A stretch of 32,000 bases of DNA from Longivirga aurantiaca (lineage in GTDB: Bacteria > Actinomycetota > Actinomycetes > S36-B12 > CAIYMF01). Positions 11,769 to 18,419 of the stretch are shown piece by piece. The notes under the pieces are model-generated. The model saw nothing but the letters and a program-made list of their open reading frames with translations. It did not search any database and was not told the origin of the DNA. A program made the translations under genes and the position numbers. The stretch lies in contig NZ_JBHSTI010000008.1 of NCBI RefSeq assembly GCF_042660085.1, positions 2,025,604-2,057,603 of the forward strand, in the 5' to 3' direction. Each line of letters starts with the position of its first letter. The stretch's first letter is position 1.

Positions 11769-12113
11769 GGGACCTTCCGGATCGTGGTGGTCACCCGCAA
11801 GACAGCGCGCAGCACGCTCGGGAGGAGCGAGGGCGCAAAGGGTTGCGTCGTCGGTGACCGTGGTGCGTTCCCGTGCGGGTGCACCGCAACCGGTCACTGG
11901 GCCGGAGGCTCGGGGCGCTGCGCTGTTGGAGCGCGTCCCCGTCGTGAGAAGGAATTCGCCGCGGGGTCAGTGCCACCCGGAGCTCGGCGAGATGTGACCA
12001 GGGTACCGGAGTTCCGAGGCGACCCCGACCACCGACGCGCGGCGAGGGTGACGTGATCGTCATGACCGCCCCATGACGGCACGGAGGGTTCATGATGTCC
12101 GCGGGGGACGAGG

Positions 12114-12965
12114 ATGGGTGTGCCGATGAGGCCCAACCGGCCGACGCGGGCCGCCCTGCGGCTCGCCGCGGGCTACTTCGCGGTGTCCGTGGCGTGGATC
12201 CTGCTCTCCGACCGCTTCGCGCGCAGGCTCGCGTTCGGCAACGAGGACGCCGAGCGCTACCTGCAGTCGCTCAAGGGCCTCGGCTTCGTCGCGATCACGT
12301 CGATCGGGCTGTTCCTCGTCGCGCTCCGCTACCTGCGCCGGGTCGAGGACTCGACCGATCGCCTGCGATCGGCGTACGACGAGACCCTCGCCGGCTGGGC
12401 GTCCGCGCTCGACATCCGCGACCGCTCGACGGCGCAGCACACCGAGCGCGTCACGCGCCGCACGGTGGCGCTGGCACGGCAGTTCGGGTTCGAGGGCAGG
12501 GCGCTCGACGACGTGCGTCGAGGAGCGACGCTGCACGACATCGGGAAGATGGGCGTGCCCGACGACGTCCTCGGCAAGAAGGGCCCGCTCACCGACGACG
12601 AGTGGGTGCAGATGCGACGGCATCCCGAGCTCGCCGTCCAGATGCTCCAGGGCATCGAGTACCTCCGCCCTGCGCTGACGATCCCCCTGTGCCATCACGA
12701 GAAGTGGGACGGCAGCGGATACCCGGCGGGCCTCGTGCGCGAGCAGATCCCGCTCGAGGCGCGGCTGTTCGCCGTGGTCGACGTGTACGACGCCATCACC
12801 TCGGTGCGGCCGTACCGCCAGCCGATGCAGGCCGACGAGGCGCGGGCCACCATCGAGGCCGGCTCGGGCACCCACTTCGATCCGGACGTGGTCGTGGCCT
12901 TGCTCGCACTCGTCGACGCCGAGAACCGCGCGGAGGCAGGGCGAGGGCCCGCCACCCCCCAGTAG
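12114..12965 (+). CDS. Membrane-anchored HD-GYP domain protein (putative cyclic-di-GMP phosphodiesterase)
   Basis: Two N-terminal hydrophobic helices, then the HD domain (HTERV...LHDIGK...) and HHEKWDGSGYP. Confidence 0.85.
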   Translation: MGVPMRPNRPTRAALRLAAGYFAVSVAWILLSDRFARRLAFGNEDAERYLQSLKGLGFVAITSIGLFLVALRYLRRVEDSTDRLRSAYDETLAGWASALDIRDRSTAQHTERVTRRTVALARQFGFEGRALDDVRRGATLHDIGKMGVPDDVLGKKGPLTDDEWVQMRRHPELAVQMLQGIEYLRPALTIPLCHHEKWDGSGYPAGLVREQIPLEARLFAVVDVYDAITSVRPYRQPMQADEARATIEAGSGTHFDPDVVVALLALVDAENRAEAGRGPATPQ

Positions 12966-13268
12966 GTGACGGGCCCTCGAGCGGGTGACGAGCACCGCTC
13001 CGAGGAGCAGTCCGGCTCGCAGGTCACCCGAGCCTTGACCCGGCCTGCGATCGGCCGGGCAGAAGAACCATCTCCCGGCGATGTGAACAGTCCGTTTCGT
13101 CCCTGATGCGTCGAGGTCAACCTTTTCCGCCCCTGCGCGAAGGAGGGCGGACGAACCACGACGAGGTGGGCGCACAGGTCCCTGCTGCGCATCGCAGGCT
13201 CGTCCAGCCGAGCCAGCCCTGCGCTCAGATGCGCACCGGGGGCCCACAGCCCGTCTGCGCCAGACGTG

Positions 13269-13299
13269 CGTGGCCCGGACCCTGCGGGCCCGGGCCACG
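13269..13299 (-). terminator. 10-bp GC stem hairpin directly downstream of tRNA-Val
   Basis: CGTGGCCCGG / CCGGGCCACG with an 11-nt loop, 8 nt after the tRNA 3' end on the minus strand. Confidence 0.5.
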
Positions 13300-13306
13300 A
13301 TCGACG

Positions 13307-13380
13307 TGGGCGCAAAGGGACTCGAACCCCTGACCCCCTCCTTGTAAGGGAGGTGCTCTAACCAGCTGAGCTATGCGCCC
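13307..13380 (-). tRNA. tRNA-Val (anticodon UAC), no encoded CCA
   Basis: The minus strand GGGCGCATAGCTCAGCTGGTTAGAGCACCTCCCTTACAAGGAGGGGGTCAGGGGTTCGAGTCCCTTTGCGCCCA folds as a cloverleaf: 7-bp acceptor, GCTC/GAGC D stem, CCTCC/GGAGG anticodon stem with loop CTTACAA, and a GTTCGAGTC T loop. Confidence 0.95.
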
Positions 13381-13564
13381 GGATGCCGGCGACGTGCGCC
13401 GATCCGACGGGCGAGGGTACCGAAACGGGCGGTCGGCCACGAAACCTGCGCACCTGGTCCGGACGTGGGACAACCGCGTCGGGGGGTTCTCGGGCCACCT
13501 CCGACGCGGCTGCCGGGACGATCCTGCGACCGATCGGGCCGACCCGCATCTCGAGCCCTCAGGC

Positions 13565-13653
13565 CTTGCCTCGCCGATGGGGGAGACGGACTTTCGTGCG
13601 GTTTCGGGCTGTTGGCCATACCGTGCTGGCTGCGCTGGGCGCGCGCGGTCCTG
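13565..13653 (+). repeat. 89-bp inverted-repeat element, left copy
   Basis: Matches the reverse complement of 16505-16593 at 87/89 positions by hand alignment. Confidence 0.9.
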
Positions 13654-13834
13654 CACTCGGCATCACGCTCGCGCGCCTCACCGCGTTCGAGACCGGTGCC
13701 GCGCCCCCGGCTCACGGAGATCATCAAGCTCGCCGCGAGCGGGCTGTGGTGTCCAACAAGCGGATCGGCGATTCCGGCACCGGGCAACGGTCCAGGGCCT
13801 AACCTCCCCACGGGGGCTCGTCCGGGGAGGGACC

Positions 13835-16366
13835 ATGCGCTGGACCACTGTGGTGGTGCGGGGGGCTGTCGCGGCGGTGGTTCTGGCCGCGGCCTGGCAG
13901 CCAGTCGCCGCACAGGCCGCGACGTTCACCATCAGTTGCCTGAGCAACCCGGTGCTGAGGAACATCGCGCTCATCGACGCGTTGGAGAAGGCCAACGACG
14001 AGGTGTCCTACCCCGGTGCGGACACTGTCGTGCTGCCCGCCGGCTGCCACTACCTGTTCGACCAGGATTACGGCGACTCCGGCGGCATCCTGCCGCCGAT
14101 CACCGCGGCAGTGACCATCGACGGGAACGGGTCCACGATCGAGAGGCAGGATCCGGACACCGGCACCGGTGATGGGGGCCGGTTCCTCACGATCAAGTCG
14201 ACCGGCGACCTGGTGGTCGGCGATCTGACGCTGCTCAACGGGGCAGGTAGCGACGGCGGGTTCATCGGCAACAGCGGACAGCTGATCGCCAGCGACCTTG
14301 TCCTTGAGGACTCGGCGTACGGGAACAACGACTCGGCGCTGCACAACTGGGGCACCGCCTACGTGCAGCGAACCACGTTCACCAACACCGACTTGTTCGG
14401 GATCGCCGCCCTCGGAGGCGGCGTCTACAACGAGGGTGGGGCGCACCTGACCGTCGTGGACTCCTTGTTCCAGTTCAACACCGCGGACGCCCCGACCGGC
14501 GTGCCGCAAGTGGGCGGGGCGCTGTTCAACGAGCCGCTCGGCTACGTGGAGATCTACGGCACGACGTTCGACCGCAACTACGCCGGAGGTACCGGCGGTG
14601 CGATCTACAACGCCGGGGACCTGCGCATCCACGGGAGCACGTTCACCGGGAACGGTTCCAACTTCGGCGCCGCGATCGACAACTCCGCGGATCTGACCGT
14701 CGATACCAGCTACTTCGGGCAGAACGCTGCAGGCATCCAGGGCGGTGCCATCAACAGCACCGGGCTGGGCACGCTGATGAACGTCACCAACAGCACCTTC
14801 TACCGGAACAGCGCGAACAGCGGGAACGGCAAGGGCGGCGCGATCGCGAACGGGTTCTCCTTCGTTGGCGAGGCGCTCACCTTCGACGGGAACAAGGGCG
14901 TCGGTGCGTCGGTGTGGACAGGGGAGAACGCCGTCTCGAGGCTGGAGTCCTCCATCTTGGGCGGGACCGTCACGCAGTGCGCCGGTGACGGCACGACCAA
15001 CGACTTCGGGGGGAACCTGGTCCAGAGCAGCGCCTACGGCTGCCCGGACACGTTCCTGGTCGGCGACCCTGTGCTGAGCTCGCCGGCGGCGCATGGCAGC
15101 ACCGCGCCGCTGACCGTGGCGCTGGGTGCCGGCAGCGCCGCCGTGGACCGCATCTCTAGCGGCTGCACGAGCACCGACCAGCGGGGCAAGCCACGCCCAG
15201 CCGACGCGTGCGACATCGGCGCCTACGAGAACCAGGCTCCGTCCGCGCCGGGCACGCCGCTCGTCACGCCGTCCACCAACCCGACCCGGACCGGCGCGTT
15301 CCAGCTGTCCTGGTCGGCCGCCAGCGACCCGGACGGCACGGCTCCGTGCTACAGCGTGCAGCGCAAGGACACCGACGACTCCGCCTTCACGCAGATCGCC
15401 TCGACCTGCGCGCTGTCGACCGGGTTCAGCGCCATCACCGCGCAAGCTGAGGGCCGGGTGCAGTACCGGATCAGCGCCACCGACGGCCTGACCACCGCGA
15501 CGGGGTCCACCTCCAGCGTCCTCGTCATCGACCGCACCGCGCCGTCCGACCCGACACTGACGCCCGACAGGGTTGCCGAGTACTCGCCGGCAGCCGGTGA
15601 CGCGTGGTGGGCTGACACGCTGACCGTGACCGCGGCAGGCTCGTCCGACCCGGCCCTGGCCGACGGCAGCGCCGGCACCGGCATCGCCGGTTACACCGAC
15701 CCCCAGACGCTCACCGCGACCGGCGCCACCGTGGTGTCCGGCACGGCCACCGACGGCGCCGGCAACACCAGCACCAGCCAGGCCGCGTTCCGCGTCGACG
15801 CGTCTGCGCCGGTTGTCGCCTACGGCGCGTGCCCCGCGACCCGGCTGAAGGGCCAGGCTCTGACCCTGGCGTGGTCCGCAACCGACGCCGGCGCGGGGCT
15901 CGCCACGTCGAGCACCGGCACGCAGGTCGTGGACGTCGATGTCGTCGGTGAGAAGACCTACCAGGCCAGCGCCACCGACCTGGTAGGGCACACAACCGTC
16001 GCCACCTGCACCGTCCGCGTCGTCTACGACTACAAGGGCCCGTTCTCCCCGCTGTCGGCCACCGGGTACGCCACGGTCACGGCCGGACGAGTCGTCCCGG
16101 TGCAGTTCAGCCTCGCCGGCAACCAGGGCCTCGGCGTGCTCACCGGCGGCAACGCGCAGTCCGCGCCCGTCACGTGCGGCACGACTCCAGCTCTGACCAG
16201 CGGCACGGCAACGTCTCCCACCAAGGCCGGGCTCACGTACGACACCAAGACGGGGCTGTACACGTACAGCTGGAAGACCGCCAGCGCCTGGGCCGGGAGC
16301 TGCCGCGTGCTGATCCTGCCGCTCAACGACGGCACGATGCACCGCTCCTACGTCCAGTTCAAGTGA
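13835..16366 (+). CDS. Large secreted right-handed beta-helix protein (PMP/'choice-of-anchor Q'-like repeats, Ig/FN3-like domains, C-terminal PxKF-like domain)
   Basis: ATG 13835 after GGGGAGG. Signal peptide ...AAWQPVAAQA/A. Repeated GGAIxN / FxxN beta-helix motifs ending TDQRGKPRP..CDIGAYE. DRTAP/DASAP Ig-like junctions. C-terminus AGRVVPVQFSL..GNQGLGVL...YTYSWKT..W.GSCR. Confidence 0.85.
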   Translation: MRWTTVVVRGAVAAVVLAAAWQPVAAQAATFTISCLSNPVLRNIALIDALEKANDEVSYPGADTVVLPAGCHYLFDQDYGDSGGILPPITAAVTIDGNGSTIERQDPDTGTGDGGRFLTIKSTGDLVVGDLTLLNGAGSDGGFIGNSGQLIASDLVLEDSAYGNNDSALHNWGTAYVQRTTFTNTDLFGIAALGGGVYNEGGAHLTVVDSLFQFNTADAPTGVPQVGGALFNEPLGYVEIYGTTFDRNYAGGTGGAIYNAGDLRIHGSTFTGNGSNFGAAIDNSADLTVDTSYFGQNAAGIQGGAINSTGLGTLMNVTNSTFYRNSANSGNGKGGAIANGFSFVGEALTFDGNKGVGASVWTGENAVSRLESSILGGTVTQCAGDGTTNDFGGNLVQSSAYGCPDTFLVGDPVLSSPAAHGSTAPLTVALGAGSAAVDRISSGCTSTDQRGKPRPADACDIGAYENQAPSAPGTPLVTPSTNPTRTGAFQLSWSAASDPDGTAPCYSVQRKDTDDSAFTQIASTCALSTGFSAITAQAEGRVQYRISATDGLTTATGSTSSVLVIDRTAPSDPTLTPDRVAEYSPAAGDAWWADTLTVTAAGSSDPALADGSAGTGIAGYTDPQTLTATGATVVSGTATDGAGNTSTSQAAFRVDASAPVVAYGACPATRLKGQALTLAWSATDAGAGLATSSTGTQVVDVDVVGEKTYQASATDLVGHTTVATCTVRVVYDYKGPFSPLSATGYATVTAGRVVPVQFSLAGNQGLGVLTGGNAQSAPVTCGTTPALTSGTATSPTKAGLTYDTKTGLYTYSWKTASAWAGSCRVLILPLNDGTMHRSYVQFK

Positions 16367-16504
16367 GGCGGACGGCGGGGGCAAGCGGGGACCCCTGCTG
16401 ACAGGCCGGCTGCGGCGGCTGGCTCAGCCGCGCGCTCGAGTATCGCGCGGCACCGGAATAGGCACACCCCCCTCCGCGTCGGCTGGGCGTCCGGAGGCCA
16501 GCGT

Positions 16505-16593
16505 CAGGACCGCGCGCGCCCAGCGCAGCCAGCACGGTATGGCCGACAGCCCGAAACCGCATGAAAGTCCGTCTCCCCCATCGGCGAGGCAAG
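16505..16593 (-). repeat. 89-bp inverted-repeat element, right copy
   Basis: Reverse complement of the left copy with 2 substitutions. It ends 2 nt from the stop codon of the 16596-16928 gene. Confidence 0.9.
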
Positions 16594-16595
16594 CC

Positions 16596-16928
16596 TCAGG
16601 CGGTGGGGTCCGCCCGCAGCACGCGGTCGAGGGCGGCTGCGACGTCGGCCGCGAGGGCCTCCCGGGGCGACCCCTCCCGCTCGACGTTCGCGCCGGGAGC
16701 GGCCACCGAGGCTCCGACGTGACCGCAGCCCCGGCACACGACCTCGCCGAGCCGCTTCACGAGCACGGTCGACCCGCACTGCGCGCACCGGTCGAGCCCG
16801 TCGGTCCAGCCGTCGGTCTGGCAGTCGGGGCAGACGAGCACCTGCTCGCCCACCACGACGGCACGACGCCAGGTCGACGGACCGGAGTCCGGGTCGACCT
16901 GGCGTCGACCGCACACGACGCACCCCAT
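16596..16928 (-). CDS. Small four-CxxC (double zinc-ribbon) protein
   Basis: ATG 16928. CVVCG...CPDC...CAQCG...CRGCG. High GC3. Lies 37 nt downstream of ahpE on the same strand. Confidence 0.7.
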   Translation of the reverse strand: MGCVVCGRRQVDPDSGPSTWRRAVVVGEQVLVCPDCQTDGWTDGLDRCAQCGSTVLVKRLGEVVCRGCGHVGASVAAPGANVEREGSPREALAADVAAALDRVLRADPTA

Positions 16929-16965
16929 GGCACCGATGGTGCCAGCAGGACGCCGGGATGCGGGA

Positions 16966-17430
16966 TCAGGCAGTGATCGCGAGCAGGGCGTCGCGGTAGT
17001 CCTGGGTGCGCCGGGCGTCGCCCGGGCCGTTCACGACCGACCAGCGCACGACGCCGTCCTTGTCGATGATGAACGTCGCACGGAGCGGGAAGCCGCCGGG
17101 CTCGAAGAAGACGCCGTACTCCTGGGTCACGGCGCCGTGCGGCCAGAAGTCGCTGAGGAGCTGGAACTCGTAGCCCTCCTGCTCGGCGAACACCTTGAGC
17201 GTGGCCGTCGTGTCGCACGAGATGCCGAGGACGACGGTGTCGTCGTTCTCGAACACCGACCGCTCGTCGCGGATCTCGCACAGCTCGCCGGTGCAGGTGG
17301 CCGTGAACGCCTTCGGGTAGAAGACGACCACGACCGTCTTCTCGCCGCGGAACGACGAGAGACGCACCGGGGTGCCGAACTGGTTCCTGAGCTCGAAGTC
17401 GGGGGCTTCCTGGCCCACCTCGACCGGCAT
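16966..17430 (-). CDS. ahpE: Peroxiredoxin, AhpE type
   Basis: ATG 17430 after AGGAAGG. APDFELR, VVVFYPKAFTATCTGEL and LLSDFWPHGAVTQEYGVF match the mycobacterial AhpE pattern. 154 aa. Confidence 0.9.
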   Translation of the reverse strand: MPVEVGQEAPDFELRNQFGTPVRLSSFRGEKTVVVVFYPKAFTATCTGELCEIRDERSVFENDDTVVLGISCDTTATLKVFAEQEGYEFQLLSDFWPHGAVTQEYGVFFEPGGFPLRATFIIDKDGVVRWSVVNGPGDARRTQDYRDALLAITA

Positions 17431-17489
17431 GCGCGTGCCCTTCCTGGCCCTGGGCCGCGGAAGCGTCCCCACCACGGCAGGATTCGATC

Positions 17490-18419
17490 GTGGCACAGCT
17501 TCCCTCCGTCCTCCTCCCGAGCCCTGGCGACCGCGGGCTCGCGACGACCGACCGCGACCGGCTCGCGGCGTCGGTCGACCGGGCGTGGGCGCTGTTCGCC
17601 GAGATGGTCGAGCCGCTCGACCTCGCAGCCGTCACGCGCGCCAAGGGTCTGACGGTGCGCGAGGTGGTGACGCCGCTGGGTGCCTGGCCGGACAACCGGC
17701 CGCTGGCGCAGCTGCTCGAGGAGGCGCGCAGCGGAGTGGTCGGCGACCACGACCAGGGAGCCCTCGTGGACGCCGTGCGCGCCGCGCACGCCGACGAGCC
17801 GCGCGACGCCGTGCTGGCCGCGGTCCGGGCGCAGGGCGGCCAGATGGCGGCGTGGCTTGCGTCGGAGGAGTCCGACGTCGACGGTCTGCTGCCCGTGGCG
17901 TCGATGCTCGGCACGATCCCGCTGCTCACGTTCCTGCACGCCTCGACGTACCCGCTGGCGACCTCGGCGCTGGACCTCGAGCAGGCCGGCGCCGTCGTGC
18001 CGGACGAGCTGCTCGCGCTCGGGCTCGTCGGGGTGCTCGACACCATCGGCGCCCTGGCCGCCCGGCAGGGGCTCACCGCATCGCTCGTCGCCGTGACGCC
18101 GACGCTGTGCGCCGGGGTCGCGTCGGTGCCCGGGGCATGGCGCACGGCCGACCTCGACGGGCTCGACGCCGCCGACCTCGGGCCGCGTGTGGAGGGCACC
18201 GTGCGGATGCTTCTCGACGTGACGGCGAGCCGGGCCGACGTGCCGCGGGCCATGGCAGCGAAGACCCTGGCGCTGCACGACGTCCCGGGGCTGCTCGCGC
18301 TGGCGCCGCTCGTCGATCAGGTGCCGGGGATCCCAGGCGGCGCGGCGCTGTCCGCGAGCATGCGCGCGGTGTCCGCCGTGGGGTCGCTGCTGCGCCGCCT
18401 GCCGTTCACGCGAGGCTGA
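17490..18419 (+). CDS. Conserved hypothetical protein (Ala/Leu-rich, possibly DinB/MDMPI-like N-terminus)
   Basis: 309-aa ORF with high GC3, a GTG start, divergent from ahpE. I recognised no diagnostic motif. Confidence 0.6.
   Translation: MAQLPSVLLPSPGDRGLATTDRDRLAASVDRAWALFAEMVEPLDLAAVTRAKGLTVREVVTPLGAWPDNRPLAQLLEEARSGVVGDHDQGALVDAVRAAHADEPRDAVLAAVRAQGGQMAAWLASEESDVDGLLPVASMLGTIPLLTFLHASTYPLATSALDLEQAGAVVPDELLALGLVGVLDTIGALAARQGLTASLVAVTPTLCAGVASVPGAWRTADLDGLDAADLGPRVEGTVRMLLDVTASRADVPRAMAAKTLALHDVPGLLALAPLVDQVPGIPGGAALSASMRAVSAVGSLLRRLPFTRG

Follow-up and report, generated by a model that had tools for sequence, protein, structure and literature searches.

The classic mobile insertion cassette is MIC231 of the Bacillus cereus group, which is mobilised in trans by the transposase of IS231A. 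Canonical IS256 elements are about 1.3-1.5 kb in length and comprise a single open reading frame (ORF). Mobile insertion cassettes, together with transporter insertion sequences, are defined by ISfinder/ISsaga (PMC3129680). In prokaryotic Mutator-like elements, the transposase presents a DDE triad, a C/D(2)H motif after the second aspartate (D2) and a helical insert of 99-138 residues between D2 and the glutamate, with terminal repeats being 18-39 bp long and ending in C, and direct repeats being 8 or 9 bp (PMC3942029). Here, a 32,000-nucleotide stretch of the Longivirga aurantiaca genome (C8:2025604-2057603 of assembly G000, 3.67 Mb in 71 contigs), referred to as the window, was considered. 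Attention was directed to positions 13565-16593 of the window, where a gene encoding a large secreted protein is bracketed by inverted repeats. It is highly probable that this region is a 3029-bp non-autonomous transposable cassette, namely, a mobile insertion cassette that originated from a transporter insertion sequence. A non-autonomous transposon-like cassette had been one of several possibilities raised in an original prediction based on the DNA alone, and it is this possibility that is supported by empty sites in relatives, by arms that correspond to ends of an insertion sequence (IS) and by the 8-9-bp duplications of the IS family involved.

The locus was compared with these described systems. 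As in other mobile insertion cassettes, terminal repeats matching those of a transposase-bearing IS family bracket a passenger gene and no transposase is found inside; a target duplication of the length seen in the family is present, as is an empty site in relatives; a cognate transposase gene, broken in this case, is found elsewhere in the genome; and autonomous relatives themselves carry cargo, i.e., are transporter ISs. Unlike MIC231, however, the cassette stems from an IS256/IS1249-like clade rather than from IS231 (IS4 family), each of its two arms is a copy, 89 nt in length, of the same (right) end, it is present in a single copy, its cargo is one large secreted beta-helix protein, and its mobilisation in trans is presumed. 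The cassette also resembles miniature inverted-repeat transposable elements in being non-autonomous, in its IS-derived repeats and target duplication, and in needing a transposase in trans, yet such elements do not code for proteins, are shorter than about 300 bp and are usually found in multiple copies, whereas the window cassette is 3 kb long, coding and single-copy. The type of cassette is, then, already known; it is the source IS group that databases have left unannotated.

Direct comparison of the two arms reproduced the inverted repeat originally described, with 87 of the 89 positions (98%) being complementary. Outside the arms lies a perfect 8-bp direct repeat, CCTCAGGC, which touches both arms with no spare base. 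The heptamer CCTCAGG had previously been placed at 13557-13563 and 16594-16600, positions that proved correct, while the single base said to separate it from the left repeat is gone once CCTCAGGC is read as an 8-bp direct repeat abutting the arms. Empty sites, which the original prediction had proposed be sought at the tRNA-Val/ahpE locus of relatives, were found when positions 12100-17500 of the window served as query in a DNA search of 40 relatives, with the flanks of the cassette being joined in three congeners, namely, G010 (L034), G018 (L035) and G007 (L036). In G010, query position 1456 is followed two bases later by query position 4497, in G018, query positions 1459 and 4519 are separated by 31 bases, and in G007, there is a 10-base overlap between query positions 1466 and 4494. 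The 8-mer is present once at the G007 junction, the sequence of which is ...CATCTCGAGG-CCTCAGGC-CGGCGGGTC.... Since the flanks are joined in congeners and G007 contains a single CCTCAGGC, the 3029 bp of the cassette together with one CCTCAGGC are extra in this genome, which is the mark left by transposition into a target cut with an 8-bp stagger. The suggestion that the heptamer reflects a target-site duplication is thus upheld by the direct match of 8/8 positions and the single copy at the G007 empty site. Of the genomes compared, this is the only one in which the cassette separates tRNA-Val from the ahpE block. The insertion site is intergenic. It follows the end of a zinc-ribbon ORF by 2 nt, and because the stop codon of this ORF is found inside the duplicated 8-mer, that codon has been preserved.

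The arms were next compared with the rest of the genome and with sequence databases. A search for copies of the 89-bp unit, as had been proposed earlier, was fruitful in part, in that no full copy was found in the genome beyond the two that bound the cassette, and the outer 24-48 nt of the arm recurred as a second inverted pair at C8:594366-596613. The latter pair delimits a resident IS. The outer 24 nt of the arm (CTTGCCTCGCCGATGGGGGAGACG) are identical at 24/24 positions to the left end of L063, an element of the same family. When right ends were considered, both arms shared 86% identity over 74 nt with that of L063, and the arm shared 90% identity over 48 nt with that of the resident IS; the match to left ends was limited to the 24-nt core. 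As such, both cassette arms are shown, by similarity, to be right ends of a rare IS256/IS1249-like insertion sequence. The right end is also that end of the family beside which autonomous elements carry cargo genes.

Further occurrences of the terminal repeat were sought. A scan of metagenome contigs returned eight single, unpaired matches with no transposase nearby and no further cassettes, and a scan of viral contigs returned no matches. The 23-mer CTCGCCTCGCCGATGGGGGAGAC was found once in each of four unrelated metagenome contigs (L079, L080, L081 and L083), where neither a partner end nor a transposase was seen nearby; the 23-mer may represent a solo end or, alternatively, a conserved coding segment. 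In 27 congeners, a terminal-repeat 19-mer was matched with one or two mismatches only and in no convincing inverted pair, such that these matches probably correspond to chance or coding sequence.

The transposase of the resident IS was first spotted by eye from a VVADG...RCVYHW motif and then tested. Its frame includes the motifs VVMLDAT, VVADGSDAI and FVRCVYHWRKNL, which resemble the motifs D, D and C(2)H seen in transposases of the Mutator/IS256 type. When the frame, with its stops read through, was used to search 5.8 billion proteins, 19 clusters of full-length and uninterrupted homologs, of up to 86% identity, were identified. These were named 'hypothetical protein' or were unnamed, and had no precomputed Pfam domain. 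Of the 401 genomes of the class that were sampled, 5 contain the family; of the 28 searched within the genus, G000 alone does. Alignment of 16 homologs revealed D164, D245, R266-C267, H270, N274, E362 (in GPLE) and R369 to be invariant. R369 is found seven residues after E362, and GPLE...R(+7) corresponds by inspection to NPLE...K(+7) of IS256. When hhalign was used to compare the family with three canonical IS256 transposases from the genus (probability 91%, E 1e-6), D164, D245 and the RC..H...N motif aligned with D1, D2 and QRC..H of IS256, with the glutamate lying outside the alignment. In an AlphaFold model of moderate quality (predicted local distance difference test score of 72), the 117-residue stretch between D2 and the glutamate is predicted to be helical. 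When Foldseek was used to compare the model with the PDB, the top five matches were all to the transposase of ISCth4, a solved IS256-family transposase (E 5e-8 to 2e-5, TM 0.39-0.50, approximately 350 columns), followed by retroviral integrase cores.

Matches to curated profiles were obtained below threshold. PF10551 (MULE) was detected in 12 of the 16 members (best E 3.5e-4) and PF00872 (Transposase_mut) in 10 of them (best 6.2e-4; first member below 21), NCBIfam NF033544 (IS1249) was detected in all 16 (best 9e-9; cut-off 300 bits) and NF033543 (IS256) in 13 (best 2.9e-8; cut-off 150 bits). The first member, P0001, scored 23 bits against the 150 demanded for IS256 and 21 bits against the 300 demanded for IS1249. 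A search of PDB sequences with the family profile gave no match, and nor did a Pfam search with pieces of the broken transposase. The 452-residue family is nonetheless predicted, on the basis of its motifs and modelled fold, to be a distant IS256/IS1249-type DDE transposase; as it fails the curated cut-offs, it is not filed as a member of either IS256 or IS1249. Like IS256 and prokaryotic Mutator-like elements, the partner elements combine a transposase with a DDE triad, a C(2)H motif after D2, a helical insert (as modelled) between D2 and the glutamate and a K/R seven residues after the latter, with repeats of about 24 bp that start with C and with 8-9-bp duplications, while the best predicted fold match is, as noted, to an IS256-family enzyme. 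Unlike those systems, the partner transposase falls far below the curated cut-offs and has an N-terminal region rich in cysteine and histidine, and the partner elements, at 1.8-3.2 kb, are longer than canonical IS256 and regularly house cargo ORFs in the interval that separates the transposase gene from the right end.

The resident copy (L021 4367-6614) spans 2248 bp. Its 452-codon transposase frame is broken by an in-frame TGA (L021 5149) and an in-frame TAG (L021 5485), and the opposite strand carries, adjacent to the right end, an ORF encoding a 105-residue protein with a signal peptide. The left and right flanks of this IS were never found together in one congener, placing it at the boundary of a syntenic or accessory region. 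No intact transposase of the family was detected in this assembly, be it in the cassette or in the rest of the genome. With the sole copy containing two in-frame stops, the cassette is probably immobile at present, and so is probably stranded where it now lies.

Elsewhere, five independent insertions of the family were each found to be flanked by a perfect duplication. These are the elements of L063 (2292 bp) and L085 (3160 bp), both with the 8-bp duplication ACACATGT, that of L089/L090 (1800 bp; 8 bp, ACACACGT), that of L064 (2162 bp; 9 bp, TGTTAATTC) and the more distant element of L072 (2082 bp; 9 bp, GGTCGCCCA). The conserved terminal repeat of the family is about 23-24 bp, with C being the first base in all elements. 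Wherever an element has room, the interval from the 3' end of its transposase gene to its right end is occupied by cargo ORFs, which are encoded on the strand opposite the transposase and point inward from that end. The product of such cargo is often a small protein with a signal peptide or lipobox (the G000 element, L063, L064 and L072), while no such signal was seen in the 107-residue product of L089 or the 245-residue product of L085. None of the cargo ORFs of L021, L063, L064, L072, L085 and L089 matched Pfam.

Two further features of the family were observed. In L064 (248-2409), the right end belonging to the element is found at 2248-2270, and yet the TGTTAATTC duplication is bounded by an outer end at 2387-2409, identical to the left end of L085; a left-end-type terminus in inverted orientation thus lies 116 bp beyond the element's own right end. 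L064 appears to be a case of hybrid end usage, and the family would seem to tolerate odd combinations of ends. In addition, the L063, L085 and L089/L090 elements, whose transposases are approximately 46-54% identical, are inserted in nearly the same 8-mer, ACAC(A/C)(T/C)GT, with similar neighbouring bases, which may reflect a preference for a near-palindromic target site. The CCTCAGGC of the window is likewise near-palindromic.

Other origins of the bracketed segment were considered in light of these findings. According to one, it is what remains of a composite transposon that once comprised two full copies of the IS, or else an islet placed at tRNA-Val by an integrase. The use of hybrid ends by the IS family, as in L064, speaks for the former. 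As to the latter, the tRNA-Val locus holds other inserts in two congeners, of approximately 8.2 kb in G007 (C26:12322-20839) and approximately 4.3 kb in G021 (C3:119322-124024). Each of these is delimited by a partial tRNA-Val copy of 46-47 nt and looks like an integrase-type island, making the tRNA-Val/ahpE interval an insertion hotspot in the genus. In the cassette, however, the tips of the arms point outward and the arms run straight into cargo sequence, and the two arms share an endpoint, at nucleotide 89, which would not be expected of two copies that had decayed independently. A tRNA-targeted integrative island was likewise rejected, as no integrase was found, and as CCTCAGGC, found 176 nt away from the tRNA, does not derive from tRNA sequence. 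Either version of this explanation is thus very unlikely.

According to a second explanation, the arms serve to flip the 2.85-kb segment between them, be it as a phase-variation-type switch or through RecA-mediated inversion. Near-identical inverted repeats of 89 nt are indeed long enough for occasional homologous inversion. Nonetheless, no invertase or recombinase gene was found in or beside the segment, and the gene, its ribosome-binding site and the 181 nt upstream are all contained within it, such that flipping would not switch the gene on or off. Moreover, the arms are ends of an IS with a target duplication, and relatives were found that lack the segment altogether, with none presenting an inverted form. 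That the segment exists as a dedicated switch is therefore hard to credit, although inversion could occur as a by-product of the cassette arms.

The least plausible proposal, that the structure arose in situ as an inverted segmental duplication (as had been raised in the original prediction) or through two insertions of repetitive extragenic palindromic (REP)-like sequences around a resident gene, is countered by the presence of only two full repeat copies in the genome, by the match of the arm ends to those of a transposase-bearing element, by the single 8-bp duplication that brackets the entire unit, by the absence of the cargo gene from the empty sites and from the 27 congeners searched, and by the outer flanks, which are contiguous in relatives and in which inverted similarity ends exactly at the direct repeat, falling to chance level (a score of 14, as compared to 13.4 +/- 2.4 in shuffled sequences). 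An REP/REPIN-type dispersed palindromic repeat was also rejected, given that only the two full copies and the ends of the resident IS were found and that the arm folds no better than do shuffled sequences, with no significant hairpin on either strand (z = -0.7 and +0.6).

Returning to the transposable cassette, a route to its present form can be proposed. The ancestor would have been an autonomous element arranged as left end, transposase gene, cargo on the opposite strand and right end, in which an inverted copy of the right end, 89 nt in length, would then have taken the place of the transposase gene and left end. That the arms cease to match at the same nucleotide suggests a single copying event, as opposed to two deletions that occurred independently. 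The orientation of the cargo gene, inward from the left arm, is that of cargo at the right end of autonomous elements. The resulting unit would have been moved in trans by a 452-residue DDE transposase of the family, which would bind the terminal repeats, cut at the terminal C and insert the cassette into a target cut with an 8-9-nt stagger. The CCTCAGGC 8-mer, which served as target and was duplicated upon insertion, is intergenic, with tRNA-Val on one side and the zinc-ribbon gene with its stop codon on the other.

Several observations weigh against this interpretation. No further copies were found in the databases searched, and with a single copy known, mobility of the cassette as a unit rests on one insertion event; nor was a second element with two right ends found. 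The resident IS shows no target duplication (CCCAGGGC on one side, ACAGGGGT on the other), and its transposase is broken. The transposase family lies under each of the curated thresholds applied (PF00872, PF10551, NF033543 and NF033544). The codon usage of the cargo gene offers no sign of foreign origin. Finally, CCTNAGG is nearly palindromic, and were this genome the only one considered, the 7-mer might be taken for a continuation of the inverted repeat; CCTCAGGC is read as a duplication because of the G007 empty site and the direct match of all eight positions.

As originally described, the arms enclose only the gene for a secreted protein of 843 residues. Between them, a single coding-like ORF was found, beginning with a signal peptide-encoding region and starting at 13835 rather than 13836, and neither a transposase nor an integrase was detected in the segment by ORF domain scan or by tblastn with the family transposase, again as had been reported. 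Although the cargo protein matched nothing in Pfam, NCBIfam searches revealed a choice-of-anchor Q domain (NF041518, 49 bits) and a C-terminal PxKF domain (NF038114, 96 bits), and homologs of about 40% identity carry PF13229 and PF02415 (right-handed beta-helix). The best homologs, 42% identical, are found in ordinary chromosomal contexts, and no terminal repeats flank those at L065-L068. Because the gene was not found in the 27 other genomes of the genus searched and its nearest homologs share only this level of identity and are not flanked by repeats, the cargo gene is judged to be foreign to the genus.

The earlier impression that the gene contains visibly more A/T-ending codons than its neighbours did not hold. 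The GC content at third codon positions is 0.919, as compared to a genome mean of 0.930 (standard deviation 0.048; 1677 long ORFs), corresponding to the 28th percentile, and the synonymous-codon log-likelihood falls in the 26th percentile. The lower overall GC content of the first half of the gene is attributable to the first two codon positions, i.e., to amino acid composition.

The non-coding parts of the cassette were also considered. The region upstream of the cargo gene matched none of the IS copies and contained no sigma-70 consensus, and a scan of the cassette for consensus promoters and terminators returned nothing, such a scan being uninformative for an actinobacterium of 72% GC. The sole weak inner similarity of the spacer downstream of the gene to the left side is the 12-mer CCGGTGCCGCGC. 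Upstream of the gene, CCTCCCC (13803-13809) could in principle pair with the ribosome-binding site. The features of the locus are collected in Table 1.

Table 1. Features of the cassette and of the adjacent loci, in window coordinates.
Feature	Position	Strand	Remarks
tRNA-Val (anticodon TAC)	13306..13380	-	Left neighbour of the insertion site, outside the element
Target-site duplication, left copy, 8 bp CCTCAGGC	13557..13564	.	Identical to 16594-16601; abuts left arm
Left terminal inverted repeat, 89 nt	13565..13653	+	Right-end type; outer 24 nt (CTTGCCTCGCCGATGGGGGAGACG) are the family terminal repeat
Unique region upstream of cargo gene, 181 nt	13654..13834	+	Ribosome-binding site GGGGAGG at 13824-13830, as read from the sequence
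Cargo gene, secreted protein of 843 residues	13835..16366	+	Signal peptide, beta-helix, choice-of-anchor Q, C-terminal PxKF
Unique spacer, cargo stop codon to right arm, 138 nt	16367..16504	+	
Right terminal inverted repeat, 89 nt	16505..16593	-	Right-end type
Target-site duplication, right copy, CCTCAGGC	16594..16601	.	Contains the stop codon of the zinc-ribbon ORF (TGA, minus strand, 16596-16598)
Zinc-ribbon-like ORF, 110 residues	16596..16928	-	Right neighbour; insertion 2 nt past its stop codon
AhpC/TSA gene	16966-17496	-	Right of the zinc-ribbon-like ORF

Rightward of the cassette, the zinc-ribbon-like ORF and the AhpC/TSA gene are followed by genes encoding DUF3052 and pyruvate dehydrogenase E1; the position originally assigned to the cargo gene, between tRNA-Val and the ahpE block, was thus correct. 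When positions 12000-18000 were scanned against Rfam, the tRNA was the sole match, ruling out that the arms are a known RNA family.

What the partner elements represent can be addressed more speculatively. It is possible, if on balance doubtful, that they form an undescribed group of the IS256 superfamily with a built-in cargo slot by the right end, repeatedly holding genes for exported proteins or lipoproteins that read inward. In such a group, the 89-nt right end would be a self-sufficient module, comprising both a transposase-binding site and a leader for the cargo, and its inverted duplicate would make of the adjacent cargo a transposase-free vehicle for surface-protein genes among high-GC actinobacteria.

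At this locus, the empty site and the clean duplication show the entry of a large surface-protein gene into one high-GC actinobacterial lineage, with no trace of a phage, plasmid or integrase. At the same time, a set of rare 'hypothetical' proteins of about 450 residues (19 clusters) is exposed as putative IS256/IS1249-like transposases of cargo-carrying insertion sequences. An element with two right ends offers a natural test of the end asymmetry needed by IS256-type transposases, and annotation of the family and of its terminal repeat (CTTGCCTCGCCGATGGGGGAGAC) would let pipelines recognise such cassettes.

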